Positions 43,601 to 60,213 of a stretch of DNA of 64,000 bases are shown here, one piece after another. The stretch covers positions 211,050-275,049 of the forward strand of contig CAVVCK010000001.1 in assembly GCA_963746775.1 (NCBI GenBank), given 5' to 3'. This DNA is from an uncultured bacterium. GTDB taxonomy: Bacteria; Patescibacteriota; JABMPQ01; CAVVCK01. Under the pieces are notes generated by a model that was given only the letters and a program-made list of their open reading frames with translations, did no database searches and had not been told where the DNA came from. Within the stretch, counting starts at the first letter, position 1. The number at the start of each line of letters is the position of its first letter. A program made the position numbers and the translations under genes.

Positions 43601-44068
43601 CACTTTTGCCCCAAAATGTTTTTCTCCTTTGGAAATATTGGAAGTAAAAAATACTCCTGGAGATCTTATAATCTGACTCACCACTACTCTCTCTACTCCA
43701 TTAATAATAAATGTTCCTCTCTCTGTCATTAAAGGAAATTCACCCAAATATACTTCCTGCTCTTTGATTTCTCCTGTTTGTTTATTGGTAAGCTGTACTT
43801 TCACGCGCAAGGCTGCTTCAAAAGTTGCATTTCTTGATTTGGCTTCTACTTCATCGTACTTTGGATCATCGAAAGAATAATCTAAAAAATTAAGTTCTAA
43901 GGCTTTTTCAGTAAAATCTAAAATTGGCGATATCTCTGAAAATAGCTCTTTTAATCCTTCTTTCAAAAACCAGTCATAAGAATTAAGTTGAACCTCAATT
44001 AAATTAGGTAGATCAAAGATTTTTTGATTACTTTGATTTAAATACTTACGTTTTGTTTCTTGAAGCAT
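40688..44068 (-). CDS. rpoB: DNA-directed RNA polymerase subunit beta
   Basis: 1126 aa; canonical beta-subunit conserved regions; directly upstream of rpoC. Confidence 0.95.
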
Positions 44069-44126
44069 TAGATTATAATAAAGAAATAAATAAACTAAAT
44101 TAGGAAGTTTGGGGATACTAAAAAAT

Positions 44127-44152
44127 AGCGCAAATATAAAAAGCGCTTTTTC
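44127..44152. promoter_or_regulatory. Hairpin AGCGC-N11-GCGCT with flanking A/T runs in the rpoB leader region
   Basis: Seen in sequence; possible attenuator-like structure roughly 75 nt upstream of rpoB. Confidence 0.25.
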
Positions 44153-44313
44153 TGATGTAAATTATTTAACAAAAAAGGAAGGCGATATTACTTTTCGCAT
44201 GCTTATATAATATATAAAATAAAAAATGTGTCAATAAAAAAATAATACTATTTCCCAAAAGTAAAATTATGTGATAAAAATACCTTAAATTTCTAATTAC
44301 TAATTACTAATAA

Positions 44314-45288: not shown

Positions 45289-45291
45289 AAA

Positions 45292-45318
45292 ACACAAGAC
45301 TGTAGTCTCGTGTTTTTT
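45292..45318. terminator. Bidirectional terminator hairpin ACACAAGAC-TGTA-GTCTCGTGT with T-runs on both strands between miaA and 45336..46382
   Basis: Seen in sequence. Confidence 0.5.
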
Positions 45319-45335
45319 CAATTAATCAGGAATAT

Positions 45336-46382
45336 CTACGGAAGAGGATTATCAACTGTATAACTAATTGTAACACCACCTAACCGCATATCTGCACTCG
45401 AAGCACTAAAATTTACAAATATATAATAAGAATATTGGCTATTATCAATAATGGCATTAGAAATGGAAGTAGCTGAGGCCTCTCTCCATGATCCTAAATT
45501 AGTAGTAGGAACAATAGAGGCTATTGTCTCAGTAGTACTTTTATTATTACTTCTTGCTAACGCAAAATTCATATTCTCATCTGGTACGTTATTATAATAA
45601 TCTACTGTCATCCCCGTTATAATAGCTCCATTAGGAAAATCTACAGGCGACGAAAAAGAATCATCTGTTGTACTAAGAACACCACTTGCTTTAGCATAAG
45701 TATCAGTCTCATTATTAGGTATAAAGCCATACCCGGAAACAGATAAATACCTCGTCTGTGCAGAATTATAAGAATAAGAAGCTGCAGTTATATTAGAATT
45801 ATCAGCAATTTTATCACCAGTTACAGCATCATCAGCAAGCCTAGCAGTATTTATCCCTCCATCAGCTACTGATACAATAGCATCACCAGAAGATCCATTA
45901 GATACAGAAATACCATCACCAGCTAAAACTGAAGTAATATCACCAACAGTAACTGTACTAGTATCATCACTATTATTGGCTAAGGTTAGAGTTCCAGTTA
46001 TCTGCACATCATCATTAATAATAAAAGGCATATCATCTCCCAGGCCTGGTCCATAGTTCAAACCACGAAATACACGGCCATCTATTCTGACATTATCACC
46101 AAAGGTAACAGGATTATCCACACCATCATTAGTAGTACTATTTACAATAGTACCATTAAAGAAAGTAACACCACCTGTACCCTGTTTACCAATATAAACA
46201 GAATTAAAGCGACCAGTATTATTAACTACCAACTCTTCATTGTAAGTAATACTAGAGGCAGGTTGTAATTGGCTTATGGTTGAAGTAGCTTGGTCTATTC
46301 CACTAAGTGTGGCAGCCGAAGCTGAACCTATGGTAGCCAACAAGCCCAAAGTTACTGCTATAACAAAAGCTAATTTTTTCAT
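45336..46382 (-). CDS. Secreted tail-fibre-like protein (paralog 3)
   Basis: Signal peptide MKKLAFVIAVTLGLLATIGSASA; conserved module IGKQGTGGVTFFNGTIVNSTTNDGVDNPVTFGDNVRIDG; INTARLADDAVTGDKIADNS repeat; divergent C-terminal domain. Confidence 0.55.
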   Translation of the reverse strand: MKKLAFVIAVTLGLLATIGSASAATLSGIDQATSTISQLQPASSITYNEELVVNNTGRFNSVYIGKQGTGGVTFFNGTIVNSTTNDGVDNPVTFGDNVRIDGRVFRGLNYGPGLGDDMPFIINDDVQITGTLTLANNSDDTSTVTVGDITSVLAGDGISVSNGSSGDAIVSVADGGINTARLADDAVTGDKIADNSNITAASYSYNSAQTRYLSVSGYGFIPNNETDTYAKASGVLSTTDDSFSSPVDFPNGAIITGMTVDYYNNVPDENMNFALARSNNKSTTETIASIVPTTNLGSWREASATSISNAIIDNSQYSYYIFVNFSASSADMRLGGVTISYTVDNPLP

Positions 46383-46449
46383 TATTTTTTTATTTTATTA
46401 ATTAATTATTTTTATTATAACACATACGTATTTGAAAAGTTATCCACAA

Positions 46450-48573
46450 TTAATTTAATAAATCCTTCTTAATATTCTCTGCTACTTTAAACCCTATTAT
46501 TTTACCTAAAGTTTGATTATCAACTTTTCTTATATCAGACGGTTTTTTAATTCCAGTATTAAATAATTTTCTGGCTCTTACTCGACCAATATTTTTAATT
46601 TTAACTAATGGTAATAATTCTTCTCTAATTCCATAAAGTATCCTCGTTCTCATTTTCCGTAACTCTTTGCTCCATAAAAATCCCGGCAGCATTCTACTAA
46701 ATTCAGTGGCAGCATAGAAAAGCCAATCGAGAGTTTCAATCCTAGCTCGCAGTTCTCCCGGAGTCATCCCAAATTTCTCTAACAGAAAATCCTCTGACCT
46801 TTCATCAATCCACTCAGAAAATAATTGAGCAGTCTTAATACCTTCTAAATAATTTCCATACTCTTCAGAAAAAGTATCCGGTGCACTTTGTAGTAACCAG
46901 GGTTCTTCTTTTAGTAAAGCTTTCTCTATCCACTTCCAATCTTTTTTATTAATATGCAGCAGGGGAGAAGCCTCTACGCAACCTGACATCATATGTAGCC
47001 AAGCAAAATCAGAAATTGCTTCTCTGCTTGAAGCTTTTTGAAAATTAAATATTATATGATTAGCCGATACCGGATCAATATACAATTCTGAGACTCTCTT
47101 GCCTATTTTTGTAGGGGATAAACCTGTCTGGTCTCTACAAATAAATCCGAATTGTTCTAATTGCTCTAATATACTATCTAAATTTTCTTCAAAAGAATAC
47201 ATATCAGTCGCTTGATGAGCTAAAAATGTTTTCTCAAAAAATCCTGATAAATCTTCTCTGGTTTTTATAACTTCCCCAGCAATTAGAGCTAATACATGAG
47301 TACGCAAAATCGATGGATCCCCTAACTGAGAATTTATCTTTTCTGTTTCTCCATTGATATAATTTTCCCAAATATAATCTGTATCTCGATCATTTTTAGC
47401 CACTAAAATAGCTTGCCCTTCGCTATCATATTGAGGTCTACCCGCCCGACCACACATTTGTTCCACATCCATCACTGGAATCCAAGCCATACCATAACCC
47501 ATGCTAAATCGCTTTAGATCTCGAATTATAACTCTCGAAGCTGGTAGATTCACTCCCCAGGCTAGCGTTGGTGTCGAAACAATAATTTTTATTTTTTTAT
47601 TTTTAAAACTATCTTCTACTAATTTTTTTTGATTATATAATAATCCTGCATGATGAAAAGCTGTACCCATTCTAATACACTTAGCTAATCTTCTACATTG
47701 TTTACTAGATTTTTCTAATGATCTTTGAGCCGTTCCAGCAATCTTTTCTAATTCTTGATTTCCATCTAATTTCAAATTTTCTACTACAATTTGACCAAAC
47801 TGCTCAGCCGCACTTTCCGCATTTCTTCTTGAGGAAACAAACACTAGGGCTTGCTTACCTTGCTCGACTGTATCCTTTATTAAACCAAAAATACCTTCCT
47901 CTCTAATATTCATCGTATATTCCGGTTTGAAATCTACTACCTTACCATAAGACACACCTTTATATAATTTTACCGGTCGCCAGTCGGATTTTATTGGTTT
48001 AGCCGATAACCACGAAGCTAGCTCTTCATAATTACTAATAGTAGCAGATAGGCCCAAAACTTCTGGTGAAATTTTCTGGCGAAGTCTAGTTAAAACCATT
48101 TCTAGTGTTGCCCCTCGCCCGGAAGTGCCCAATAAATGAATTTCATCAACAATAACTAATCCGATGTCACTAATCCATTCTAACCCATGCCGCAACAGTG
48201 AATCTAGTTTCTCTGAAGTACAAATAATTAAATCAAAATTAGCTAACCAAGTTTCACCTCGATCATAATCGCCAATAGACATAGCCACTCGTAAACCAAG
48301 TGATTCATATTTTTTCTTAAAATCTTCAAATTTCTCTGAAGCTAGGGCCTTAAGGGGCATAATAAAAACAACTTTTTTGCCCCGCCGAACTGCATTCAAA
48401 GTAGCAATTTCCGCTATTAATGTTTTACCAGAAGCAGTTGAAGCTGAGACGACTTGATTCGCACTATCCAGCAAACCATTATCAACTGCTAATTGCTGCA
48501 CTGGATTAAGCTTAGCAAAACCAGATCTTTTTAATATTTCCGGAACTATATTTTCACTATCTAAATTTTGCAT
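46450..48573 (-). CDS. Ski2/Hel308-like superfamily 2 DNA helicase with C-terminal helix-hairpin-helix domain
   Basis: 707 aa; Walker A ASTASGKT, DEIH box, Ski2-type motif VI QMCGRAGRPQYDSEG, C-terminal HhH (..NIGRVRARKLFNTGIKKPSDI..); length and architecture match archaeal Hel308. Confidence 0.6.
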   Translation of the reverse strand: MQNLDSENIVPEILKRSGFAKLNPVQQLAVDNGLLDSANQVVSASTASGKTLIAEIATLNAVRRGKKVVFIMPLKALASEKFEDFKKKYESLGLRVAMSIGDYDRGETWLANFDLIICTSEKLDSLLRHGLEWISDIGLVIVDEIHLLGTSGRGATLEMVLTRLRQKISPEVLGLSATISNYEELASWLSAKPIKSDWRPVKLYKGVSYGKVVDFKPEYTMNIREEGIFGLIKDTVEQGKQALVFVSSRRNAESAAEQFGQIVVENLKLDGNQELEKIAGTAQRSLEKSSKQCRRLAKCIRMGTAFHHAGLLYNQKKLVEDSFKNKKIKIIVSTPTLAWGVNLPASRVIIRDLKRFSMGYGMAWIPVMDVEQMCGRAGRPQYDSEGQAILVAKNDRDTDYIWENYINGETEKINSQLGDPSILRTHVLALIAGEVIKTREDLSGFFEKTFLAHQATDMYSFEENLDSILEQLEQFGFICRDQTGLSPTKIGKRVSELYIDPVSANHIIFNFQKASSREAISDFAWLHMMSGCVEASPLLHINKKDWKWIEKALLKEEPWLLQSAPDTFSEEYGNYLEGIKTAQLFSEWIDERSEDFLLEKFGMTPGELRARIETLDWLFYAATEFSRMLPGFLWSKELRKMRTRILYGIREELLPLVKIKNIGRVRARKLFNTGIKKPSDIRKVDNQTLGKIIGFKVAENIKKDLLN

Positions 48574-48620
48574 AGAAAATTATATTGTAGTACCAGCCTC
48601 TCTAGACTGGCATATTTAAA

Positions 48621-48666
48621 AATTAAATTAAAAATCTCTTGCTAGGTTCTCATTATAACAAGAGAT
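48621..48666 (-). terminator. Rho-independent terminator ATCTCTTG-N17-CAAGAGAT followed by T-run (minus strand) after gatB
   Basis: Seen in sequence. Confidence 0.55.
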
Positions 48667-48693
48667 ATAAAAATTAAAATGTTAATTACTTTA

Positions 48694-50208
48694 TTATTCA
48701 GCCAGCTTTTCCTTTAAAATTTTAGCAGCCACCGCTGGATCAGCTTTTCCTTTCGTTCCCGCCATTACCTTACCGATTAAAGCCTGAATAGCATTTCCAT
48801 TACCAGCCTTATAATCTGCTACTGGTTTTTCGTTATCACGTATAACTTTTTCAATTATTTGATCTAACTCTCCTTCATCACTTACCTGAGATAAACCTTG
48901 TTCTTCAACAACTTGCGATGGATCAGAGCCTTTCTCAAACATAATTTTTAAAACATCTTGTGCTACCTTACTGCCTATTTTATTAGTATAAAGTAGAGAG
49001 ATCAGTTCAGCAAAATTTTCCGGAGTTACTTTGCAATCGGCTATATCCTGGCCAGATTCATTTAATGAAGCTAGCAGCTTTGAAGAAAGCCAGCCAGAAA
49101 TTAATTTAGCTAATTTAAAATATTCTTCCTCAGGCATATCACTTTTTCCTTCTCTGCTTGTGTACCATTCTCTAGCTTCACTTAAAGAATTTTCAAAAAA
49201 ATCTGCTAATAAGATACTAGAAGTTAAAACCTGAACTTCTTTTTCATTTAATTTAAATTGTTCTATAAATCTTTTTTCTTTTTCTTTTGGCAATTCTGGT
49301 AAATCTTTTTTTAATTTTTCTAAATAATTTTTATTAAATTCGAAGTAGGGGAGATCTGGTTCTGGAAAATACCTATAATCTGCTGCCCCTTCTTTAGTTC
49401 TCATCTCTACTGTTTCTCTCAAGGCATCAACCCAACCTCTCGTTGCTTGCACACTTGGAATATTACCCTCTTCCCACATACCTTCTTGCCTCTTTAATTC
49501 ATAAACTAACGCCTCATAAACAGCCTTAAACGAGTTTATGTTTTTTATTTCCGTCTTTGGATATAATTTTTCTTCACCTTGCGGTCGCAGTGATATATTA
49601 GCATCGCAACGCAATTGCCCTTTTTCCATATCAGCGTTAGAAACGTTTAAATAGCGTAATAATTTTCTTAATTCTTGTAAAAATAATTTAGCCTCCTCTG
49701 GATTTCTAAAACAAGGTTTGGTAACAATTTCCATTAAAGGTACTCCGCCTCTATTATAATCAACTAGACTTTCACCATTGTTAGAGTGCATTAATTTGCC
49801 CGCATCTTCTTCTAAATGAATTCTCTCTAGCTCTAGTTTTCTGACCTTATCACCTATTTTTATTTCTAATTCTCCACCATTACAAAGTGGCATATCATAC
49901 TGGGATATCTGATAGCCTTTGGGTAAATCCGGATAAAAATAATTTTTTCTATCAAATTTAGAAATGACAATATCATCTTCATTTTTTTTAGGCTTGCCAA
50001 TACTACAACCTAACGCCTGCCCTGTCATAATAGTCCAATCAATGGCTTGTTTATTAGCTCGCGGCAGAGTTCCTGGATGACCCATGCAAATAGGACAAAT
50101 ATTTGAATTTGGTTCTGCTTCTTTATTGGCACAGCTACAAAACATTTTCGATTTTGTTTTCAGCTGCACGTGAATTTCTAGGCCTATAATTGTTTCGTAT
50201 TTTGACAT
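48694..50208 (-). CDS. gatB: Asp-tRNA(Asn)/Glu-tRNA(Gln) amidotransferase subunit B
   Basis: 504 aa; N-terminus MSKYETIIGLEIHVQLKTKSKMFCSC, GatB catalytic and YqeY-like C-terminal domains. Confidence 0.9.
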   Translation of the reverse strand: MSKYETIIGLEIHVQLKTKSKMFCSCANKEAEPNSNICPICMGHPGTLPRANKQAIDWTIMTGQALGCSIGKPKKNEDDIVISKFDRKNYFYPDLPKGYQISQYDMPLCNGGELEIKIGDKVRKLELERIHLEEDAGKLMHSNNGESLVDYNRGGVPLMEIVTKPCFRNPEEAKLFLQELRKLLRYLNVSNADMEKGQLRCDANISLRPQGEEKLYPKTEIKNINSFKAVYEALVYELKRQEGMWEEGNIPSVQATRGWVDALRETVEMRTKEGAADYRYFPEPDLPYFEFNKNYLEKLKKDLPELPKEKEKRFIEQFKLNEKEVQVLTSSILLADFFENSLSEAREWYTSREGKSDMPEEEYFKLAKLISGWLSSKLLASLNESGQDIADCKVTPENFAELISLLYTNKIGSKVAQDVLKIMFEKGSDPSQVVEEQGLSQVSDEGELDQIIEKVIRDNEKPVADYKAGNGNAIQALIGKVMAGTKGKADPAVAAKILKEKLAE

Positions 50209-50213
50209 AAAAA

Positions 50214-50774
50214 TTAATTTATTTTATTTCTTATCTCTTTAAATATTTTATTATAATTCATCTTGCTAAAATCAGTCGTATCTATTTCCAAAATATCACC
50301 GCTAATATCTAGCTTCTTGTGCTTCCCTTTTAATAAAATATCTTTAAATTCATCGTAATTTTTATTATCAACATGACCAGGATGTCTTTCTACTGACTCA
50401 GATCTCTTTTTAAACCTTTCTAATAAAACACTATCTTCTGTCATACATAACATTTGTAAAATTTGAAAATTATATTTTGCTTTTAACTCTTCAAATTTTT
50501 TATTATCAAACTTTGGCTTAAAATTACTTTCAATAATAAAAGGTATATTAACTTTTAGTAATGACTCAATTAAATAATACAAAATACCATAACTCGTCCT
50601 ACCTAATTTCTTTGACCATTCTCTGTCGCTCCAACCTAAATTATCAAATAACAATTCCTTTATGCTATCTTTATTAATAAAGGGTATATTAAATTCTTTA
50701 GCTATTTTTTCTCCCAAAGTTGTTTTGCCGGTACAAGGTGGTCCTGAAATGATTATTAAAGAAGCCTGAGACAT
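50214..50774 (-). CDS. P-loop NTPase/kinase-family protein (predicted nucleotide or small-molecule kinase)
   Basis: 186 aa; Walker A ISGPPCTGKTTLGEKIA at the N-terminus and adenylate-kinase-like size; last gene before gatB in the thyA-folA-tmk operon. Confidence 0.4.
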   Translation of the reverse strand: MSQASLIIISGPPCTGKTTLGEKIAKEFNIPFINKDSIKELLFDNLGWSDREWSKKLGRTSYGILYYLIESLLKVNIPFIIESNFKPKFDNKKFEELKAKYNFQILQMLCMTEDSVLLERFKKRSESVERHPGHVDNKNYDEFKDILLKGKHKKLDISGDILEIDTTDFSKMNYNKIFKEIRNKIN

Positions 50775-50777
50775 AAA

Positions 50778-51491
50778 TTAAATTACTTTTCTAACTTCTT
50801 GCCAAACCTTTTCGTGTATATCTTTTTTACTTAATAATTTTTTATTTTCAATACAATTAATTAATTCCCAATATTTATATTTATTGCACAAGTATTTACT
50901 ATTTTTAACAACTTTTTTTTGATATTCAAAACTACTTTCATGCTTATCAATTTTTCTATTTTTATTTTCACTTGCTCGTCTTTCTAATAAATTTTTAGAA
51001 ATTTCTACTGGTACAAACAAATATATCATTAAGTCTGGTTTCGGCGATTTTAATATTTCATATTCAAATTTATTTATCCATTTTAAATATTCTTCTTTTT
51101 CTTCTTTATTATTTAATTTTGCTCCTTGATAAATTTCATTAGAAGCTACGTATCTATTAGTTAAAACTACTCTGCCTTCTTTTAAAGCTTTATCAATTTT
51201 TTCTCTATATAAAAAACGATCCAAGGCATAAGGAAAAGAAGAATAATAGGGATTTAATCTTTTGGGATCACCAAATTCTCCATATAAATATTTTTTTATA
51301 AATTTACCAAAAAAACTTTTGTATATAGGAAAATCCACTACAAAATAAGGTATTTTCTCTTTTTTAAACCTCTTTTTTAATAAATCCCATTGGGTTGTTT
51401 TACCCGAACCATCCGAGCCATCAATCACAATTAATTTTCCCTTATTCTTTTTCATTTTATTTAAATTTATCCGCCCAATCCGCATATTCAT
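50778..51491 (-). CDS. tmk: Thymidylate kinase (alternative start Met at 51455 likely)
   Basis: P-loop LIVIDGSDGSGKTT typical of dTMP kinase; the canonical N-terminus would begin at MKKNKGKLIVIDG (51455). Confidence 0.8.
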   Translation of the reverse strand: MNMRIGRINLNKMKKNKGKLIVIDGSDGSGKTTQWDLLKKRFKKEKIPYFVVDFPIYKSFFGKFIKKYLYGEFGDPKRLNPYYSSFPYALDRFLYREKIDKALKEGRVVLTNRYVASNEIYQGAKLNNKEEKEEYLKWINKFEYEILKSPKPDLMIYLFVPVEISKNLLERRASENKNRKIDKHESSFEYQKKVVKNSKYLCNKYKYWELINCIENKKLLSKKDIHEKVWQEVRKVI

Positions 51492-51500
51492 CCGCTTTAT
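51461..51500 (-). repeat. Four GCGGAT(A/T) direct repeats at the folA/tmk junction
   Basis: Minus-strand reads CGCGGATAA-AGCGGATGAAT-ATGCGGATTGG-GCGGATAAA; same core as the cluster upstream of rnj. Confidence 0.5.
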
Positions 51501-51973
51501 CCGCGTATTAATTCCAAAAATTTATACTTATAATTATCATCACCAGAATCACGTTCATAAACAACTTTGTTAAATTCAGAATAATCCGGAAAATAAGTAT
51601 CAGCATCAGACACGCTAGCTTCTACCTCAGTAATATACAGTTTATCAGCATAGGGAAGTGACAATTTATAAATCTGTCCCCCACCGATTACAAAAATTTC
51701 TTCGTCCATTTTTTTTGCTTCTTTCAAAACTTTTTCCAAAGAATATCTAGTTTCACAGCCCTTAGCTTTATAATTTTTATTCAAAGTTACCACGATATTT
51801 TTTCTATCAGGCAAGGGTTTTCCAATCGACTGAAAAGTCTTCTCACCCATTACTACCGTACGACCTCTAGTTACATCCCTAAATCTTTGCATGTCTTCTG
51901 GAATATCAAAAAGCAGCTGGTTTTTCCTACCAATTTCTCTATTTTTTCCTACAGCAACAATTATACTGATCAT
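51497..51973 (-). CDS. folA: Dihydrofolate reductase
   Basis: 158 aa; MISIIVAVGKNREIGRKNQLLFDIPEDMQRFRDVTRGRTVVMGEKTF DHFR N-terminal signature. Confidence 0.8.
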   Translation of the reverse strand: MISIIVAVGKNREIGRKNQLLFDIPEDMQRFRDVTRGRTVVMGEKTFQSIGKPLPDRKNIVVTLNKNYKAKGCETRYSLEKVLKEAKKMDEEIFVIGGGQIYKLSLPYADKLYITEVEASVSDADTYFPDYSEFNKVVYERDSGDDNYKYKFLELIRG

Positions 51974-52056
51974 AGATTTAATATTAGCAAAAGATTAAAC
52001 TGATTTAACAGATAAATAAAGATATTTTATTCTGTTTAATTTGCTAAATCTGCGGC

Positions 52057-52929
52057 CTATACTGCAATCTTAAATTTTATAGTCGGATAACTTTCATAAT
52101 TTAAAATCTCTGTATCATCAGCCTTCCAATCAAAAATTGAAGAAAAATTATCTGTTTTTATTTCCGGCAATGAATATTTTTCAGGATTCCGAGATAGTTG
52201 TTCTTTTAAACCATCAATATGATTTAAATAAATATGCGTATCACCCAAAAAACCTGTTAAAATTCCTTCTTCAAAACCACCCTCCAAAGCTAGCAGATGT
52301 AGGAGAGTAGCATAACTAGCAATATTAAAAGGAAGACCCAAAGCAATATCAACTGATCTCTGATTCCAAAGTAAATTTAACTTATCATTTATAACTACTA
52401 CCTGAAATCCGTAATGGCAAGGAGGCAGAGCCATTCTTTTTAAATCTAGCGGATTCCAAGCCATCACAATCATTCTGCGATCGGTAGGATTTTCTTTTAA
52501 TTTTTGAACTAAATCCCTTAACTGATCAACTCCTTTGCTCCTAGGATTTTTATCAAATGATTCATAATTTGCACCAAAATTTCTCCACTGATATCCATAA
52601 ATAGGTCCAAGCTCTCGCTCATTTGCCATTTTTTTCTTAGTTTCCTCATCAGTACCATAAGAAACCTTGTCAGGAGAACACCATTCATCCCAAATATGAT
52701 TATTCCGATCCTGAAGCCATTTCTTATCTGTAATACCTTTTATGAAAAATTCCAATTCTGAAGAAATTAAACGATAGGGTATTTTCTTAGTCGTTAACAA
52801 AGGAAAGCCCTGAGACATATCGTGTTGAAACATCATCCCCGGAATAGATATAGTACCCGTACCAGTCCGGTCTTCTTTTCTTTGCCCTTTTTCTAAAACT
52901 GTTTTGACAATACACAAATATTCCTTCAT
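52057..52929 (-). CDS. thyA: Thymidylate synthase
   Basis: 290 aa; conserved ThyA motifs (..RRMIVMAWNP..PPCHYGFQVVV.., DIALGLPFNIASYATLLHLLA). Confidence 0.9.
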   Translation of the reverse strand: MKEYLCIVKTVLEKGQRKEDRTGTGTISIPGMMFQHDMSQGFPLLTTKKIPYRLISSELEFFIKGITDKKWLQDRNNHIWDEWCSPDKVSYGTDEETKKKMANERELGPIYGYQWRNFGANYESFDKNPRSKGVDQLRDLVQKLKENPTDRRMIVMAWNPLDLKRMALPPCHYGFQVVVINDKLNLLWNQRSVDIALGLPFNIASYATLLHLLALEGGFEEGILTGFLGDTHIYLNHIDGLKEQLSRNPEKYSLPEIKTDNFSSIFDWKADDTEILNYESYPTIKFKIAV

Positions 52930-52982
52930 TTTTTATTTTTATTATTCACCTAACATATATACGTATATAATTGCGTACGGCA

Positions 52983-52990
52983 TTATACAT
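52983..52990 (-). promoter_or_regulatory. Extended -10 element TGTATAAT upstream of thyA
   Basis: Seen in sequence roughly 55 nt upstream of thyA start; followed by CGTACG-containing segment. Confidence 0.3.
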
Positions 52991-53019
52991 AATTGATTTA
53001 CCCAAAAAATATTCCTGCA

Positions 53020-53123
53020 CCCCCCCCCTCGTACAGATAGGTTTCAAACCTGTCTCAACTACATTTCAAACCTGTCTCAACTACATTTCAAACCTGTCTC
53101 AAGAAATACAGGTTTAATACCTG
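53020..53123. repeat. C9 homopolymer, palindrome AGGTTTCAAACCT, 2.8 tandem copies of a 22-bp unit TTTCAAACCTGTCTCAACTACA (53042-53103) and palindrome ACAGGTTTAATACCTGT
   Basis: Seen in sequence in the rplA-thyA intergenic region. Confidence 0.8.
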
Positions 53124-53126
53124 TAT

Positions 53127-53807
53127 CTACATTTTTACACGCACCCCAGGTCCCATAGTAGAGCAGATAGTTACACCTTTAATATATACTCCTTTTGTTC
53201 TCTCTGGTTTAGCTCTATTAGCAGCTTCCATAAAAGCTTCATAATTTTCTTTTAAGGCTTTTTCATCCAAGGATACTTTACCAATCATTTGGTGTAAAAC
53301 ACCAGCTGGATCAGCTTTAAAACTTATTTTCCCAGACTTTAATTCTTTGACTGTTTTAGCCGGATTATCTGAAACAGTTTCTGATTTTGGATTAGGCATT
53401 AGCCCTTTCGTTCCTAATATTTTCCCAAGCTTTCCCAAATACCTCATCATTGAAGGTTCAGCAACAGCTACATCAAAATCAGTTTTTTCAGTTTTCTTAA
53501 TTTCTTCAATTAGACTTTCTCCACCAACAATATCAGCCCCTGCTTCTTTTACTTCTTTTTCTTTAGAACTATCAACAAAAGCAGCTATTCTAATTTTTTT
53601 GCCTGTAGAATGGGGGAGAGTTACTGTTCCTCTTACTTGTTGATCTCCTTTTTCAGAATCAATCCCTAAATTAATATGAACTTCTACTGAAGAATCAAAT
53701 TTAGTATTAGCATTTTCTTTAACAATTTTCAAAGCTTCATCAATAGAGTAGGTCGTACTCTCTATTTTCTCTTTTAATTCTTTGTATCTCTTACTTCTTC
53801 TTCTCAT
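53127..53807 (-). CDS. rplA: 50S ribosomal protein L1
   Basis: 226 aa; conserved L1 N-terminus MRRRSKRYKELKEKIESTTYSIDEALKIVKENANTKFDSSVEVHINLGID. Confidence 0.9.
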   Translation of the reverse strand: MRRRSKRYKELKEKIESTTYSIDEALKIVKENANTKFDSSVEVHINLGIDSEKGDQQVRGTVTLPHSTGKKIRIAAFVDSSKEKEVKEAGADIVGGESLIEEIKKTEKTDFDVAVAEPSMMRYLGKLGKILGTKGLMPNPKSETVSDNPAKTVKELKSGKISFKADPAGVLHQMIGKVSLDEKALKENYEAFMEAANRAKPERTKGVYIKGVTICSTMGPGVRVKM

Positions 53808-53887
53808 TTTTTTATTCCTTTAGTGGTATTAGCGTTCTAATTGACATACTAGAACTCCCACTCATTAATTTAATATTATATTTATTC

Positions 53888-54511
53888 TTAATTCTTAATT
53901 TCCACTCTGGGCAAACTAGTCTTGGATTGGTTAGATTCTAAATTCTTCCCCGGTTGATTCATTATGATAACTGAGATTATATGAATTATCAACACTAAAC
54001 TATCTAATACTATTTCTACTTTAAAAAATAATTCGAGTTGATTTAGTAATGCTCCATAAGGCAGAAGATAAACAACATTTGGCAACCATTTTATATGTTT
54101 AAAATTTTTAAACTCAATAAAATAAGTGTGTATATATGAAAGCGCTTCAATAAATAAAACCAAAAAGGCAAGTTCAAAACTAATGACTCCCCCGTAAGCG
54201 AGCGCAATCAACCAGGGGAGACGCACTCCCCTATCTGTTATCAAATCGTAAAAAGCACCTATTTTTGTCTCTTTACCTAAGTAGCGTGCTAACCTACCAT
54301 CTAGCCCATCAAATAAAAAATCCAAAGCAACAAATATTCCACCAATCACTACCTCCCCTTTTATAAAGTAATAAAATGCTATAACAGCGGATATAATAGA
54401 TAATATGGTTAAGCGGTTAGGAGTTAATTTTAATTTGACAAGCACAACAAAAAAATTTAAAGGAACAATCTTGTCCGTAAATTTTTTGAATTGATTAACT
54501 AGCATAATCAT
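53888..54511 (-). CDS. CDP-alcohol phosphatidyltransferase family protein (head-group transferase)
   Basis: 207 aa multi-TM protein with the D-G-x2-A-R-x8-G-x3-D-x3-D signature: DGLDGRLARYLGKETKIGAFYDLITDR; inserted between rplK and rplA. Confidence 0.7.
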   Translation of the reverse strand: MIMLVNQFKKFTDKIVPLNFFVVLVKLKLTPNRLTILSIISAVIAFYYFIKGEVVIGGIFVALDFLFDGLDGRLARYLGKETKIGAFYDLITDRGVRLPWLIALAYGGVISFELAFLVLFIEALSYIHTYFIEFKNFKHIKWLPNVVYLLPYGALLNQLELFFKVEIVLDSLVLIIHIISVIIMNQPGKNLESNQSKTSLPRVEIKN

Positions 54512-54530
54512 TAAAACACTAGAACGTTAA

Positions 54531-54610
54531 AATCTGCCTCTCCGCCTCCAATGGCAGATGCGCTATTAAAGGCGCATATTGGCAGATTCGCCGTCAGAGG
54601 TGGACAAAAA
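54531..54610 (-). promoter_or_regulatory. GC-rich structured element (hairpins TCTGCC..GGCAGA and ATGCGC..GCGCAT, TGGCAGAT direct repeat) between rplK and the CDP-alcohol phosphatidyltransferase gene
   Basis: Seen in sequence; possible ribosomal-protein (L1-type) autoregulatory leader or other structured RNA. Confidence 0.3.
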
Positions 54611-54627
54611 AATAAATTTTCAATTCA

Positions 54628-55050
54628 TTAACCCTCAACTGTTACTCCCATACTCTTAGCTGTACCAGCAACTATATTAATAGCAGCCTCAATATCTTTA
54701 GCATTCAAATCTTCCATTTTTTTCTCAGCAATTTCTTTTAATTGAGCGTGTGTTATTTTACCAACCTTATTCTTTTGTGGCTCTCCTGACCCTTTTTGTA
54801 AATTAATAGCTTTTTTAATTAGCTCAGCTGCCGGAGGAGTTTTTAAAACAAAATCAAAGCTTCTATCCTCGTAAATATTTATAATTACTGGAATTATATC
54901 TCCCATTTTATCCTTTGTTTTATCATTAAAGGCAGTACAAAATTCCTGGATATTCAACCCATGCTGTCCTAGAGCTGGTCCAACTGGAGGCGCAGGATTA
55001 GCTTTTCCTGCCTGAATTTGTAACTTTACTTGCGTTTTAAGTTTTTTCAT
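54628..55050 (-). CDS. rplK: 50S ribosomal protein L11
   Basis: 140 aa; [33 protein letters not shown] canonical L11 N-domain. Confidence 0.9.
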
Positions 55051-55106
55051 TTTGTTACTTTATTATAAGATTACTTTAATTTATATATCCACATATTAAT
55101 TATGAC

Positions 55107-55195
55107 TGAAATTGGTTATATGGAAATTTGAAAATGGTAATAGAAAATAGAAATTAGAAATTTGTTAACTATTTTCTAAACAGTTAATTTCTTAA
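55107..55195. repeat. Direct repeat copy A (about 88 bp) immediately upstream of rplK
   Basis: GAAATTGGTTATATGGAAATTTGAAAATGGTAATAGAAAATAGAAATTAGAAATTTGTTAACTATTTTCTAAACAGTTAATTTCTTA matches 56858..57000 with about 5 mismatches. Confidence 0.85.
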
Positions 55196-55196
55196 T

Positions 55197-56243
55197 TTAC
55201 TTACTTCTCTCAACTACGTAATCCAAAACTTCCATAAATATCCCCTTATAATCTGAATCTTCCAGTACATCATCTATATCATCTTTGGCTGATAAAATCA
55301 AATTTTTGGCATAATTTGAAGCTTTTTCAAAAGATTTATATTTTCTCAGAATTTTTATAACTTTTTTAATCTCTAACTCATTTTTAGTACCAGAAGATAA
55401 AATATTTCCCAATATTTCCTTATCAATATCTTTGGCTCTTGAAAAGAAATCGCAAACCAGATAAGTTATTTTTCCTTCAGTAATATCCTCACCTGTTTCT
55501 TTTCCCCACTTGGTACCTGGCTTTAAATTTAAAATATCATCTTGAATCTGAAATGCTATACCCATCTTTTCTGAAATACTTTCAATTTTTTCCAATATTT
55601 TCTTATCAGCTCCAGCTAAAATTGCACCAATTTTCAAGGCTACATTTAGTAAAGCGCTTGTCTTGTAAGCTGCCATTTGCAAATACTCATCATAAGATAT
55701 ATTAAACCTCTTTTCCTTACTCCATAGAATATCCATCCCTTGCCCCAAATGAACTTTAGTCAATTCATTTACTATGACATTATACAAAACTGATTTTTGA
55801 AAATGTGGTAAATTGCTATTTTTAATAATCAGCTGTGGAAAAAAATGAATAAATACTCCGGCATTAATAGCAATTTCTTGGCCATAAATTTTATGCACTG
55901 CTTTGTCTCCCCTTCTCATATCCGAATTATCTTCTATGTCATCAATTATTAATGTGCCTGTATGAATTATTTCTGAAATTACAGAAAATTTATAAATATC
56001 TTTAAAGCTACCACCTAAGGCATCATGTATTAGACAACATAAGACTGGTCTCATTCTTTTGCCGCCTCTATTAAATAATGTATAGAAAGGTCCGCTAAAA
56101 GCTTTTTGCCAAACATTATAATCAAACTTATATTTAAAATTTCCTATATTTTCCTTAACCCATTTGTTATCTATACTTTCTGGAAAAAATTCTTTGATTT
56201 CTTTTTCAATTTCTAGAATTGTTTTTTTAAAATAATCTTTCAT
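55197..56243 (-). CDS. Polyprenyl diphosphate synthase (geranylgeranyl diphosphate synthase-like)
   Basis: 348 aa; FARM LIIDDIEDNSDMRRG and SARM FQIQDDILN aspartate-rich motifs; small residue at -5 of FARM consistent with a C20 or longer product. Confidence 0.75.
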   Translation of the reverse strand: MKDYFKKTILEIEKEIKEFFPESIDNKWVKENIGNFKYKFDYNVWQKAFSGPFYTLFNRGGKRMRPVLCCLIHDALGGSFKDIYKFSVISEIIHTGTLIIDDIEDNSDMRRGDKAVHKIYGQEIAINAGVFIHFFPQLIIKNSNLPHFQKSVLYNVIVNELTKVHLGQGMDILWSKEKRFNISYDEYLQMAAYKTSALLNVALKIGAILAGADKKILEKIESISEKMGIAFQIQDDILNLKPGTKWGKETGEDITEGKITYLVCDFFSRAKDIDKEILGNILSSGTKNELEIKKVIKILRKYKSFEKASNYAKNLILSAKDDIDDVLEDSDYKGIFMEVLDYVVERSK

Positions 56244-56284
56244 TATTTTACTACTAACTACTCACTAAACCCTATTTTCTAAAC

Positions 56285-56827
56285 TCACCACTTCGTCTTC
56301 TGAATCCCCAAATAATACCCGATATGATTAGTCAAAACATGTAAAGCAGGAACAAATAATATTAAAAATATATAAACTTGCCAAGATGGCCTAAAAACAA
56401 TTGAGGTCAGAACTAGAAAACCCAGAACAAAATCTACTTGATCAAAAGGGAAAAATCTTTTACCCGGCACAACATTTACTCGCCTTTTAAAGAAACTTTT
56501 AATCAAATCCCCTGACAACGCTCCAAAACCCATTAAAAATCCCAGCAAAAAAAAGTTATGTCCACTATAGGGCACTATTGATATCTTTCTAAAATTTTCA
56601 AAATTATTATAAAGAACAGTTTGAATCAGAACTATTAAAATACTTGTCAATGTTCCAAAAATAATTCCTCGCCAAGTTTTGTTTCTTCCTAATAAAGGCT
56701 TACCTCTAAAGATCATCCCACCATCAACCGGAATATCTAAAAATTTAAAATATTGCCTCATAAAAACAGGCATCATATTAGCAATGCCAGCCGGAAGAAA
56801 AAACCATAAATACTCTAATATAAACAT
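56285..56827 (-). CDS. CDP-archaeol synthase (CarS)-like CTP:2,3-di-O-geranylgeranylglyceryl-phosphate cytidylyltransferase homolog
   Basis: 180 aa, 5 predicted TM segments; remembered CarS-family signatures LPAGIANMMPVF, GRNKTWRGIIFGTL, GFGALSGDLIKSFFKRR and FDQVDFVLGFL; adjacent to a GGPP-synthase-like gene. Confidence 0.6.
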   Translation of the reverse strand: MFILEYLWFFLPAGIANMMPVFMRQYFKFLDIPVDGGMIFRGKPLLGRNKTWRGIIFGTLTSILIVLIQTVLYNNFENFRKISIVPYSGHNFFLLGFLMGFGALSGDLIKSFFKRRVNVVPGKRFFPFDQVDFVLGFLVLTSIVFRPSWQVYIFLILFVPALHVLTNHIGYYLGIQKTKW

Positions 56828-56857
56828 ATTTGATAATAATAATTCTTAAACCAAAAT

Positions 56858-57000
56858 CGAAATTGGTTATATAGAAATTCGAAGATGGTAATAGAAAATA
56901 GAAATTAGAAATTGGTTAACTATTTTCTAGTTTCCAATTTCCATTACTTCTACGAAGCTCGTAGGGCTAATATCTATTTTCTAAACAGCCAATTTCTTTA
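56858..57000. repeat. Direct repeat copy B upstream of the CarS-like gene (same as 55107..55195) carrying a 45-bp internal insert flanked by 9-bp direct repeat TATTTTCTA
   Basis: Seen in sequence; insert contains palindrome CTACGAAGCTCGTAG. Confidence 0.85.
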
Positions 57001-57009
57001 TCAATATAT

Positions 57010-57555
57010 TTATATCTTTTTTATCTGTAAGAAATCTAATTCTACCGGAGTCTCTCTGCCAAACATAGAAACTAATACCTTTATTTTTCCTTTTTCCTCA
57101 TCAATAGCACTAATTTTACCATCAAAATCTTTAAACGGCCCATCAATAATTCTAACAGATTCTCCCGGTGTAACATCAATTTTATATTTAGGTTCTTCTT
57201 CACCAGTTTTCTTTTGTAATGATTTAAATTCATCAGCCGATACCGGAGATGGAATTGTACCCGAACCAATAAAACCAGTTACATTGGGTGTATTGCGAAC
57301 AACATACCAAGATTCATCAGTTACAATCATTTCCACTAAAACATACCCGGGATAAATTTTTTCCTCGACTGTTTTTCTTTTACCGTTTTTAATTTTAATT
57401 TTCTTCTCTTTAGGAACTAAAACATTAAAAATTTTATCTTCCATTCCAAGTGTTTCAATACGCTGTTTTAAATTTTTACATACATTCTCTTCGTAACCAG
57501 AATAAGTATGTAGCACATACCAGTTACGTTCTTTTTCTCCAATTTGTTTAGGCAT
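57010..57555 (-). CDS. nusG: Transcription termination/antitermination factor NusG
   Basis: 181 aa; NGN domain NWYVLHTYSGYEENV, C-terminal KOW (..GPFKDFDGKISAIDEEKGKIKVLVSMFGRETPVELDF). Confidence 0.9.
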   Translation of the reverse strand: MPKQIGEKERNWYVLHTYSGYEENVCKNLKQRIETLGMEDKIFNVLVPKEKKIKIKNGKRKTVEEKIYPGYVLVEMIVTDESWYVVRNTPNVTGFIGSGTIPSPVSADEFKSLQKKTGEEEPKYKIDVTPGESVRIIDGPFKDFDGKISAIDEEKGKIKVLVSMFGRETPVELDFLQIKKI

Positions 57556-57747
57556 AATATGTTTAATTTAAATGAGTTTTTTTAAATTATAAACTTTATT
57601 ATTAATTAATTTACTCATACTTTAAATTTTATCAAAATTACCAATTTCCAAAATACAATTTCCAAACAAAATCTAAATTATAAATACCAAATTCCAAAAA
57701 ATATTAAAACCATAACTCTTAATTCATGATTCATAATTCTAGATTCT

Positions 57748-57936
57748 CTAAATAACTTTTTCCAACACTGTTAAAAAAGCAAAATCAAATATTCCTAAAA
57801 ATAAAGCTACTCCTAAACTTACACCAATTACAATTAAAGTATGTTTATATACTTCATCCTTTGATGGCCAAATAACTTTTTTTAATTCTACTTTTGATTC
57901 TTTGAAATAAGCAATAATTTTATTTATCCATTTCAT
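57748..57936 (-). CDS. secE: Preprotein translocase subunit SecE
   Basis: 62 aa, single C-terminal TM, conserved position upstream of nusG, KESKVELKKVIWPSKDEV motif. Confidence 0.7.
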   Translation of the reverse strand: MKWINKIIAYFKESKVELKKVIWPSKDEVYKHTLIVIGVSLGVALFLGIFDFAFLTVLEKVI

Positions 57937-57953
57937 TTTTTTCTATTTTAAAA

Positions 57954-58007
57954 AGACCTTTTGGGGGTCTTTTTTTATTATTAATAGCTTATCACTATCC
58001 CCCAAAA
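57954..58007 (-). promoter_or_regulatory. Terminator-like hairpin AGACC-TTTTGGG-GGTCT + T-run immediately upstream of secE, with upstream TTTTGGGGG able to pair alternatively with CCCCCAAAA (attenuator-like)
   Basis: Seen in sequence: G5/C5 runs at 57963-57967 and 57999-58003 in an AT-rich region. Confidence 0.35.
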
Positions 58008-58266
58008 TGTCAAATAATTTTAATTTAATTTTTAAATAACATTTAATATTTAATCACCAATAATCAATTTTCAATCATCAAATAAATTTGAATAACCAAT
58101 TATTTAATAACCAAATTTTTTACAGTTTTGTTTGATGTCTATTTTATTCTTTTATTTGATTATTATTTGGAAATTGTTCTCCTCTTTCGACGAATCCGCC
58201 GTTGGAGGTGGATAATTTGGTTATTGATTATTATTTGTATCTTTAACTATTCTATATAAAACTTAA

Positions 58267-60213
58267 TTAAATATCCAAATTCTTCACTAGCTTGGCATTC
58301 GTTTGAATAAACCTTCTCCTGGGCTCTACCTCATTACCCATTAAAATATCAAATATTTCATCAGCTTTAGCCGCATCTTCAACATTTACTTTATACATCA
58401 TTCTGTTTGCAGGATCCATAGTGGTATCCCAAAGCTGCCTAGGATTCATTTCACCAAGACCCTTGTATCTTTGAATAACTACATTTTTACCTTTCATATT
58501 ACTTATTATTTCATTTTTATCTTCTTCCGTATAAGCATATTCTGATTCTTTGCCGGCTGAAATTTTATATAAAGGTGGCTGTGCAATATATAAATATCCT
58601 CCTGCTATTACTTCCGGGAAATATCGATAGAAAAATGTTAAAAGCAATGTCCTAATATGAGCTCCATCAACATCAGCATCAGTCATAATAATAATTCGGT
58701 GATAACGCAGTTTGCTTATATCTTTTCCTTCACCTACTCCAATACCCAAAGCAATTATTAAGGCTTTAATTTCTTTTGAGGTTAAAATTTTATCTAAACG
58801 CGCTCTTTCTACATTTAATATTTTACCACGCAAAGGCAGTATCGCTTGAAAACCTCTATCTCTTCCTTGTTTAGCAGAACCACCAGCCGAATCTCCCTCT
58901 ACTATATATAGCTCACAATCCTCAGCCTTGCGAGACGAACAATCAGCTAATTTTCCAGGAAGAGTTAAACCTTCCATCGCCCCTTTTCTAATTACGGTGT
59001 CTTTAGCAGCCTTAGCTGCTTTACGAGCCTTACAGGCTAATAGGCATTTACCAATAATTTGTTTAGCATCTTGAGGATGCTCTTCTAAAAAATTAGACAC
59101 GGCACCAGCTACTACCGAGCTTACTACTCCTCTTACCTCAGCATTGCCAAGCTTAGCTTTAGTCTGTCCTTCGAATTGCGGCTCTCTTAATTTTATAGAA
59201 ATAATAGATTGCAATCCTTCTCTAATATCTTCGCCTGTTAGATTCTCTTCTTTTTCTTTTATATAATTATTTTTTCTGGCATAATCATTTATCACCCTAG
59301 TCAAAGCTGTTCTAAAACCCATCAAATGCGTTCCGCCTTCTATCGTATGGATATTATTAGCAAAACTCATTTCAATTCCTTTAATTTCATCAGTATATTG
59401 AAAAGCCGCTTCTACAAAAATACCATCTTCTTCTTTTTCTACATAAAATGGCACCTCGTGAATTAACTTTTCACCGCGATTTAAATAATTTAAATAAGAT
59501 ACTATTCCACCTTCAAAATAAAAACTATATTTAGGAGCTAACTCCCTAGGTAATTCACGCTCATCTGTAATGGTAATTTTAACTCCTCGAGTAAGATAGG
59601 CTTGCTGACGTAAGTGCGTTAAAATCTTATCCCAGCTAAATTCAATTTCTTTAAATATTTCCGAGTCAGGTTTAAATATTATAGTCGTACCTGTCCCACT
59701 AGCTTTACCATTCTTTCCTAATTTACAAGTAGGCTTGCCTCTTTTATATTCTTGAAAATAAATATTTCCATCACGTATTACTTCCGCTCTGGCATAAACT
59801 GATAAAGCATTAACCACACTGACACCAACACCATGCAAACCACCAGAAACTTTATATCCAGATGATCCAAATTTACCACCAGCATGCAAAGTAGTTAGCA
59901 CAGTCTCTAGGGCTGATTTTCCTGTATCTTTATGTTTTTCTATTGGAATACCACGACCATTATCATCAACTCTCACCGTATTATCTTTCATTAAAAAAAC
60001 TTTGATTTCATTACAAAAACCAGCCATAGCTTCATCAATTGAATTATCAACTACTTCCCAAATCAAATGATGAAGACCCTCAAGGCTAGTTCCACCAATA
60101 TACATACCGGGACGTATGCGAACTGGATCTAACCCTTTTAAAACAGTTATATCTTTAGCACCATAATCATTAGTTTTTTTAGAAGTCTCTAATTTATTTT
60201 TAGCTTTAGTCAT
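58267..60213 (-). CDS. gyrB: DNA gyrase subunit B
   Basis: 648 aa; GHKL ATPase N-domain, TOPRIM (EGDSAGG), C-terminal tail; canonical GyrB motifs throughout. Confidence 0.95.
   Translation of the reverse strand: MTKAKNKLETSKKTNDYGAKDITVLKGLDPVRIRPGMYIGGTSLEGLHHLIWEVVDNSIDEAMAGFCNEIKVFLMKDNTVRVDDNGRGIPIEKHKDTGKSALETVLTTLHAGGKFGSSGYKVSGGLHGVGVSVVNALSVYARAEVIRDGNIYFQEYKRGKPTCKLGKNGKASGTGTTIIFKPDSEIFKEIEFSWDKILTHLRQQAYLTRGVKITITDERELPRELAPKYSFYFEGGIVSYLNYLNRGEKLIHEVPFYVEKEEDGIFVEAAFQYTDEIKGIEMSFANNIHTIEGGTHLMGFRTALTRVINDYARKNNYIKEKEENLTGEDIREGLQSIISIKLREPQFEGQTKAKLGNAEVRGVVSSVVAGAVSNFLEEHPQDAKQIIGKCLLACKARKAAKAAKDTVIRKGAMEGLTLPGKLADCSSRKAEDCELYIVEGDSAGGSAKQGRDRGFQAILPLRGKILNVERARLDKILTSKEIKALIIALGIGVGEGKDISKLRYHRIIIMTDADVDGAHIRTLLLTFFYRYFPEVIAGGYLYIAQPPLYKISAGKESEYAYTEEDKNEIISNMKGKNVVIQRYKGLGEMNPRQLWDTTMDPANRMMYKVNVEDAAKADEIFDILMGNEVEPRRRFIQTNAKLVKNLDI

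Follow-up and report, generated by a model that had tools for sequence, protein, structure and literature searches.

Why would a bacterium keep genes of archaeal-type lipid synthesis among those of its ribosome and transcription machinery, and what could their products do there? The question is raised by a stretch of 64,000 nt of contig CAVVCK010000001.1 from an uncultured Patescibacteriota bacterium (this whole stretch is hereafter the window). Here the bacterial gene order secE-nusG-rplK-rplA-rplJ-rplL-rpoB-rpoC is interrupted: a gene for a protein like the archaeal CDP-archaeol synthase (CarS) and a gene for a prenyl diphosphate synthase lie between nusG and rplK, and a gene for a CDP-alcohol phosphatidyltransferase lies between rplK and rplA. 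An earlier reading of the letters alone (the sequence-only reading) had proposed three lipid genes inside nusG-rplK-rplA. The open reading frames (ORFs) lie exactly where it had placed them, all on the minus strand; the motifs that it quoted are present in the translations of all three proteins and invariant in alignments of diverged homologues; and all three gene identities hold at the family level in Pfam. The three-gene locus is a bacterial instance, real and conserved, of a known archaeal head-group module. As to its function, we propose with moderate confidence a module for head-group activation and attachment in a small-genome bacterium (Parcubacteria-like) of the candidate phyla radiation (CPR), with key genes from archaea of the DPANN type (Diapherotrites, Parvarchaeota, Aenigmarchaeota and Nanoarchaeota as well as Nanohaloarchaeota), acting on lipid phosphates that are mainly acquired.

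The arrangement recurs in other assemblies. In L001, a short-read assembly obtained independently from the same organism, the gene order is identical, and a locus from another sequencing run with 70-77% protein identity (L083) has the same order, synthase included. Two contigs of metagenome-assembled genomes (L002 and L010) have the same order without the prenyl synthase. In addition, the longest contigs of the homologues are equal in size (10,384 bp for CarS, synthase and transferase; 4,844 bp for CarS and synthase; 3,251 and 7,644 bp for CarS and transferase), which suggests further contigs that bear these genes together.

The CarS-like protein matched the CarS family PF01864 with 113 bits (cutoff 22) over residues 2-180, its full length, compared with 33.8 bits for the CdsA family PF01148 over residues 49-119 only (about 70 aa), so the profile comparison favors CarS over CdsA. 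The NCBIfam equivalog NF003114 was narrowly missed (138.1 bits versus a cutoff of 148). The motifs are KTWRG (50-54), GDLIKSFFKRR (106-116) and DQVDF (129-133), and the residues P33, D35, K50, T51, R53, G54, G106, D107, S111, K114, R115, D129, Q130 and D132 are invariant in 23 CarS sequences and align to the sequence of Aeropyrum pernix CarS (5GUF, polar cavity). A profile of 23 homologues matched only 5GUF in the PDB (E = 6e-24). The AlphaFold2 model of the protein (predicted local distance difference test score, 93.7) had 5GUF as its sole significant Foldseek match in the PDB (prob 1.0, TM-scores 0.71/0.81, root-mean-square deviation 2.7 Å), and it shows the fold of 5GUF with five transmembrane (TM) helices and cytoplasmic CTP-binding loops. 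Because the CarS score far exceeds the CdsA score, and because of the PDB profile match and the 5GUF fold, membership of the CarS family is well founded and, at the level of sequence and predicted structure, solid. The nearest named homologues of the window proteins are from "Parcubacteria group bacterium", and some NCBI Patescibacteria records already name homologues "CDP-archaeol synthase". Outside the CPR, the best CarS relatives among the matches listed are from Woese-, Pace- and Nanoarchaeota, at 44-54% identity.

The transferase scored 60.8 bits against PF01066 (CDP-OH_P_transf; cutoff 22). Its signature D68-x2-D71-G72-x2-A75-R76-x8-G85-x3-D89-x3-D93 is complete, and the signature residues are invariant in 26 subfamily members. 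Compared with the CDP-OH_P_transf subfamilies, it is most like the synthases of archaetidylinositol phosphate (AIP) and phosphatidylinositol phosphate (PIP), all below the equivalog cutoffs. The best NCBIfam model was AIP synthase (NF040950), with 73 bits against a cutoff of 180, and all 26 subfamily members ranked AIP synthase above PIP synthase above DIPPS by best E-value, always below threshold. The PgsA and PssA models matched fewer members with lower scores. A subfamily profile compared with the PDB gave about 1e-15 for PIPS/AF2299, 1e-7 for PssA and 1e-6 for PgsA. The subfamily is narrow: of 1.84 billion cluster representatives, only 37 reached E<1e-10 in an exhaustive HMMER search, and a word-indexed homologue search gave only 13 close relatives. 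The transferase thus classified appears to belong to a divergent, CPR-restricted subfamily nearest to the inositol-phosphate-using (AIP/PIP) enzymes.

Next to which genes does CarS lie elsewhere? We scanned a CarS alignment against one genome per GTDB species and obtained at least 80 loci (23 CPR and 57 DPANN) at 40-54% identity, the CPR loci listed being from the Patescibacteria group, Falkowbacteria, Kerfeldbacteria, Peribacteria, Roizmanbacteria and Saccharibacteria. Clustering of the neighbors showed that in 58 of the 80 loci listed a CDP-alcohol transferase is encoded no more than a few genes away from CarS, and in one protein of 278 aa (P0097) a CDP-alcohol transferase and CarS are naturally fused. 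Judged from these neighborhoods, CarS and the CDP-alcohol transferases are functionally coupled. The partner differs by lineage. In the CPR loci with CarS in the ribosomal cluster, where the partner is AIP-like, the order is either gyrB-secE-nusG-CarS-(synthase)-rplK-transferase-rplA, as in the window, or gyrB-(transferase)-CarS-secE-nusG-rplK-rplA. Loci of the Falkowbacteria type have a PgsA-like transferase and CarS beside metG and tatD, and Saccharibacteria have an AIP/PIP-like transferase, a PHP phosphatase and CarS. DPANN loci are typically ordered PS decarboxylase-PssA-CarS (PS, phosphatidylserine).

Three further observations concern these neighborhoods. The order transferase-PHP metallophosphatase-CarS is found in L068 (8653-10528) and also in L049, L055, L077 and L079 (Saccharibacteria and Roizmanbacteria types); the PHP protein beside CarS is a candidate (archaetidyl/phosphatidyl)inositol-phosphate phosphatase. 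In many Woese- and Nanoarchaeota, for example L004, L008 (9400-10540) and L060, the genes for PS decarboxylase, for a PssA that scores above the TIGR00473 cutoff and for CarS lie in a tight cluster, often with a DUF212 divergent-PAP2 gene. In L052 (9485-10528) a YdjM-like membrane domain is joined to CarS, which may be an artifact of ORF calling.

The prenyl synthase matched PF00348 (polyprenyl_synt) with 219.6 bits, and its first (FARM, DDIED, 101-105) and second (SARM, DDILN, 235-239) aspartate-rich motifs are intact and invariant. The best NCBIfam model was methanogen IdsA (IdsA_Meth, NF040698; 217.7 bits versus a cutoff of 468), the equivalog of geranylgeranyl diphosphate (GGPP) synthase, NF041003, gave 166.3 bits versus a cutoff of 500, and no NCBIfam equivalog cutoff was reached. 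The closest PDB structures are the archaeal GGPP synthases (GGPPS) 5JFQ and 1WY0. At position -5 of the FARM, in the context HTGTLIIDDIED, the window synthase has Gly where 5JFQ has Phe and 1WY0 has Tyr, and this Gly is invariant across the DPANN/CPR synthase subfamily, which therefore lacks the C20-limiting aromatic residue of archaeal type-I GGPPS. Since that capping residue is replaced by Gly, GGPP as the product length is unproven. The sequence-only reading had named a geranylgeranyl-type polyprenyl diphosphate synthase, of which the family and both aspartate-rich motifs stand and the geranylgeranyl type is unproven, given the Gly and the missed cutoffs. The product is likely short-chain (C15-C20), as the sequence suggests, and "GGPP synthase" is a reasonable guess for a label. 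We take the FARM context, LIIDDIEDNS..RRG, to resemble that of eukaryotic type-III GGPPS.

The top relatives of the synthase are from Woese-, Aenigm-, Pace- and Nanoarchaeota, at up to about 55% identity, with a few from Patescibacteria. Its closest archaeal homologue, at 56% identity (L084, 10001-11089; DPANN), directly adjoins a cluster of ribosomal-protein and RNA-polymerase genes as well (S13-S11-RpoD-L13-S9-RpoN). A neighbor-joining tree of CarS (100 bootstraps, rooted on A. pernix CarS) placed the CPR sequences in several groups interleaved with DPANN; monophyly of all CPR was recovered in 0/100 replicates and the Falkowbacteria-type clade in 99/100. The point tree has a clade uniting all CarS genes that lie in the ribosomal cluster, with support of 2/100, and so did not establish inheritance of that location from a single origin. 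By their best relatives, CarS and the synthase are affiliated with DPANN archaea; this archaeal affinity is real at the sequence level and agrees with the earlier idea of archaeal-like genes. Read from such affinities, the locus is a record of at least two lipid genes passed from archaea to CPR.

Could the bacterium make the core lipid on which such enzymes act in archaea? No candidate for geranylgeranylglyceryl phosphate synthase (GGGPS), digeranylgeranylglyceryl phosphate synthase (DGGGPS) or glycerol-1-phosphate dehydrogenase (G1PDH) was found in the window, as the sequence-only reading had stated, nor up to about 10 kb away from CarS in the 80 loci listed. There is no polytopic UbiA-like ORF in the window, and no UbiA-like, PcrB-like, G1PDH-like, UppS or CdsA gene was seen in the window or the CarS flanks. 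A phmmer search with Escherichia coli UbiA, UppS and CdsA against the window and all locus flanks gave only weak cross-matches of CdsA to CarS; for UbiA this is a weak negative, because the E. coli protein is a distant probe for DGGGPS. The three genes had been described as consecutive steps of archaeal phospholipid synthesis, which is incorrect, as GGGPS and DGGGPS come between GGPP synthesis and CarS. The broader idea of a partial archaeal-like lipid pathway stands as to gene families and archaeal affinity, and finds no support as to a de novo pathway, for which the window and the CarS flanks of the 80 loci offer no GGGPS, DGGGPS or G1PDH candidate. CPR genomes have been reported without complete lipid pathways and CPR cells with fatty-acid polar lipids, and scavenging and modification of lipids were proposed (PMC7242380). 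In archaea with reduced genomes and no isoprenoid synthesis, CarS, PgsA and PssA are kept for head-group attachment (PMC12411855).

In the module that we propose, the CarS-like membrane enzyme would use CTP to turn a lipid phosphate (archaetidic- or phosphatidic-acid-like) into a CDP-activated lipid, as its family, fold and motifs suggest. The transferase would then move the lipid-phosphate part onto an alcohol, to which the conserved adjacency, the gene fusion and the intact catalytic signature point. The acceptor would most likely be inositol-1-phosphate, giving an (archaetidyl/phosphatidyl)inositol-phosphate-type lipid. The lipid-phosphate substrate would be scavenged or partly self-made, and it would come mainly from partner organisms, because no core-lipid genes lie beside the module in the window or related loci and CPR have been reported without complete lipid synthesis. 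Its tails may be either isoprenoid ether or acyl ester. The prenyl synthase would yield short-chain farnesyl diphosphate (FPP) or GGPP, which every peptidoglycan-making cell needs for polyprenyl-phosphate carriers, and it could also feed isoprenoid tails if unseen prenyltransferases exist. Since the module is widespread and conserved in lipid-auxotrophic CPR and DPANN, it points to head-group rebuilding on acquired lipids and not to a cryptic de novo pathway.

Several points weigh against this proposal. Characterized archaeal CarS enzymes have a strong preference for digeranylgeranylglyceryl phosphate (DGGGP) as against phosphatidic acid and are unable to stand in for E. coli CdsA (PMC9385802), so the use of bacterial host lipids would need an altered specificity. 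The synthase gene lies 41 nt downstream of CarS and the pairing is kept in L083, which hints at a link to self-made isoprenoids. The gene absences apply to the 64-kb window, part of a contig of at least 547 kb, and to the CarS flanks; core-lipid genes, a CdsA, an inositol-phosphate synthase or lipid uptake may be encoded elsewhere. The inositol-phosphate acceptor follows from a sub-threshold profile ranking (73 versus 180 bits). The locus alone does not show archaeal-type lipids in the bacterium.

An unlikely but serious alternative is that the CarS-like enzyme has displaced CdsA and acts purely on diacyl or lyso-acyl phosphatidic acid of bacterial hosts, making CDP-diacylglycerol for phosphatidylinositol- or phosphatidylglycerol-type lipids, with the synthase unrelated and serving the cell-wall carrier only. 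Consistent with this, CPR polar lipids are fatty-acid based (PMC7242380), CarS lies with a PgsA-like enzyme in the Falkowbacteria-type loci and with a PIP-synthase-like enzyme in Saccharibacteria, and no canonical CdsA was seen in any flank. The membrane CarS activity of Methanothermobacter thermautotrophicus showed no selectivity for ether or ester links or for backbone chirality (PMC9385802), and bacterial genes for isoprenoids and fatty acids are present in Woesearchaeota, the closest archaeal relatives (PMC8204110). In a single DPANN locus (L054, 400-1587), a bacterial-type Dxr of the methylerythritol phosphate pathway, scoring 318 bits against E. coli Dxr, is encoded a few kb away from CarS, which fits the latter report. 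However, Archaeoglobus fulgidus CarS discriminates against phosphatidic acid and did not rescue an E. coli cdsA mutant (PMC9385802), the negative result for CdsA covers the window and the CarS flanks only, and displacement of CdsA would leave the adjacency of synthase and CarS without explanation.

It is doubtful that the lineage uses CDP-archaeol chemistry for isoprenoid or hybrid phospholipids, whether through its own DPANN-derived GGPP synthase and unrecognized prenyltransferases or by re-activating the archaetidic acid of archaeal hosts. If it did, head-group activation would be the point at which a membrane of natural bacteria crosses the lipid divide, and the placement in a ribosomal operon would make that step constitutive. 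We consider it decidedly unlikely that GGGPS- and DGGGPS-like enzymes encoded elsewhere complete an archaeal pathway from GGPP to CarS and the transferase, so that the bacterium makes its own ether lipids. To our knowledge, genomes of about 0.5-1 Mb rarely hold an isoprenoid precursor pathway and four more lipid enzymes, which argues against it. The intact CarS fold and motifs, the specificity of characterized CarS for DGGGP (PMC9385802), the adjoining synthase with its DPANN affinity and a Parcubacteria genome reported with GGGPS and DGGGPS homologues (PMC7852524) speak for such a pathway. Against it, no prenyltransferase or G1PDH candidate was found in the 64 kb or beside CarS in the 23 CPR and 57 DPANN loci listed, the synthase is absent from the same position in L002 and L010, CarS occurs in Saccharibacteria too, and in lipidomics only fatty-acid lipids were tied to CPR, all ether isoprenoids being attributed to archaea (PMC7242380).

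CarS, CdsA and CTP-dependent polyprenol kinases form one superfamily. Together with the weak PF01148 overlap and the adjoining prenyl synthase gene, this would allow a CTP-dependent polyprenol or lipid kinase (dolichol/phytol-kinase-like) that recycles polyprenol derived from the product of the neighboring synthase. This role is very improbable and was rejected: the full-length sequence and the structure match CarS itself and no other PDB fold, the conserved partner of CarS in the 58 loci is a CDP-alcohol transferase, an enzyme that depends on a CDP-activated donor and is fused to CarS in P0097, and the synthase neighbor is lineage-specific. Finally, archaeal DNA misassembled into a bacterial contig, or decaying relics without function, would fit the archaeal affinity of the genes but has next to no chance, since a chimera is ruled out by the same order in L001, L083 and, without the synthase, L002 and L010 and by the uniform GC, and the ORFs are intact with all catalytic residues invariant across diverged homologues.

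The head-group module that we favor stands in a co-directional block of eight genes in the ORF list (minus strand, 53127-60213; Table 1). The spacers measure 182 nt (nusG-CarS), 41 nt (CarS-synthase), 146 nt (synthase-rplK), 116 nt (rplK-transferase) and 80 nt (transferase-rplA). The gyrB anchor is also present in seven CPR loci (L002, L010, L019, L022, L035, L069 and L073).

Table 1. Features of the block around the lipid genes (positions in the window).
Feature	Position	Strand	Evidence or remark
gyrB	58267..60213	-	upstream anchor; identical L001 gene has the gyrase B domains of Pfam
secE	57748..57936	-	PF00584, 61.8 bits
nusG	57010..57555	-	PF02357, 101.5 bits, and KOW
nusG-CarS spacer	56828..57009	-	182 nt; one copy of the 71-nt repeat and TAGAAAATAG motifs
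CarS-like CTP:lipid-phosphate cytidylyltransferase (putative)	56285..56827	-	180 aa, 5 predicted TM helices; PF01864
trans-isoprenyl diphosphate synthase, DPANN/CPR subfamily	55197..56243	-	348 aa; PF00348
Second copy of the 71-nt repeat, synthase-rplK spacer	55108..55178	-	94% identity to 56859-56929
rplK (L11)	54628..55050	-	PF03946 and PF00298
GC-rich long hairpin followed by UUUU, rplK-transferase spacer	54523..54595	-	RNA fold
CDP-alcohol phosphatidyltransferase	53888..54511	-	207 aa, membrane protein; PF01066
rplA (L1)	53127..53807	-	PF00687, 205 bits

The spacers contain possible expression signals. A 71-nt segment of the nusG-CarS spacer is duplicated before rplK as a direct repeat with a spacing of 1751 nt, and therefore two copies bracket CarS and the synthase. 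The 45-nt core of this repeat occurs at only these two sites in the window, and all six occurrences of the decamer TAGAAAATAG in the 64 kb fall in the nusG-CarS, CarS-synthase and synthase-rplK spacers. The duplicated repeat and decamers suggest, as far as sequence can tell, a duplicated spacer or regulatory element tied to the insertion of the cassette. The RNA of the nusG-CarS spacer (56850-56990, minus strand) is predicted to form a stable three-way structure (minimum free energy -36.8 kcal/mol, z = -4.9) that has no Rfam match, and the spacer sequence is partly conserved in L083. The rplK-transferase spacer folds with -36.7 kcal/mol over 131 nt (z = -2.2); its hairpin, which the short spacers of L083 and L002 lack, may be a terminator or attenuator. 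A scan for promoters and terminators was uninformative in this AT-rich DNA, and the minus-strand terminator-like matches fall inside coding regions. Taken together, the spacer features suggest local regulatory signals and lineage-specific rearrangement, and co-transcription with the ribosomal genes is possible.

Beyond rplA, a gap of about 9 kb (44069-53126) with thyA, folA, tmk, a P-loop kinase, gatB, a helicase, an unknown secreted protein and miaA precedes the ORFs 40688-44068 (1126 aa) and 36848-40627 (1259 aa), which are taken as rpoB and rpoC by size and position; neither rplJ nor rplL was found within the window. The helicase (46450-48573, 707 aa, DEAD/Hel308-like) matched the Pfam domain "Archaeal helicase, domain 4" with 81.9 bits, has an archaeal flavor and is kept in L083. 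The rplA-thyA spacer (53042-53107) holds three tandem copies of the 22-nt unit TTTCAAACCTGTCTCAACTACA. Two signal-peptide proteins (27482-28777 and 45336-46382) have no Pfam match and share the N-terminal motif ..VTFGD[DN]VRIDG[QR]V[WF]RG.. and probably represent paralogues within an undescribed family of surface proteins. A gene for a 23S rRNA intervening-sequence protein lies at 25976-26347, and the window further contains type IV pilus genes, RecA, UvrC and other housekeeping genes. The GC content is 0.28-0.33 across the region and 28-36% throughout the window. No tRNA genes and no Rfam family at gathering score were found in the window, and a search of the 5.4-kb region at E<=1 gave nothing except one chance viral match.

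CarS is regarded as one enzyme that separates archaeal from bacterial lipid synthesis. Activity of the CarS-like protein on diacyl lipids would mean that the specificity of CarS is plastic, and activity on isoprenoid lipids would mean that archaeal-type or hybrid lipids are present in CPR. Intact CarS and head-group transferases in several CPR lineages, including Saccharibacteria with their cultured members, offer a testable handle on the membrane origin of lipid-auxotrophic ultra-small bacteria, and the CDP-OH-PHP-CarS cluster of Saccharibacteria points to a candidate PIP/AIP phosphatase. A full-text search, which covers few subscription journals, found no literature on CarS in CPR, Patescibacteria or Saccharibacteria.

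How does the locus compare with known systems? The window protein shares with known CarS (EC 2.7.7.67; A. fulgidus AF1740; A. pernix 5GUF; PF01864) the full-length family match, the five-helix fold and the motifs PxD, G..KT.RG, GD...SF.KRR and DQ.D. It differs in its bacterial host, in its 27% identity to 5GUF, in its equivalog score (138 versus 148) and in having no core ether-lipid genes nearby. The transferase has the same DxxDGxxAR...G...D...D signature as the AIP/PIP synthases (NF040950, NF045883; 5D91, 6H59, 6WM5; AF2299, 4O6M), which were the best matches to its subfamily profile, whereas its 73 bits against 180 and its narrow, CPR-restricted subfamily set it apart. The synthase keeps the FARM and SARM of archaeal type-I GGPPS (5JFQ, 1WY0) and of the Methanosarcina mazei-type IdsA (NF040698), its best structural and profile relatives, and differs from the type-I enzymes by the invariant Gly in place of the aromatic residue at -5 and by a conserved N-terminal extension of about 50 aa.

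As a whole, the locus resembles the head-group-only lipid genes of archaeal symbionts with reduced genomes (DPANN; Panguiarchaeum, PMC12411855), which have the same clustered CarS and CDP-alcohol transferases without synthesis of isoprenoids or core lipids, and DPANN are the closest sequence relatives of the window CarS and synthase. In DPANN loci, CarS is found with PssA and PS decarboxylase, whereas in the window it is found with an AIP-like enzyme inside a bacterial ribosomal and transcription block. Bacteria of the Fibrobacteres-Chlorobi-Bacteroidetes group (Ca. Cloacimonetes; PMC7852524) likewise carry archaeal-type lipid genes and blur the lipid divide. The two bacterial gene sets are complementary: the Cloacimonetes have ether-forming enzymes without CarS, and the CPR module has CarS with no ether-forming enzymes seen.

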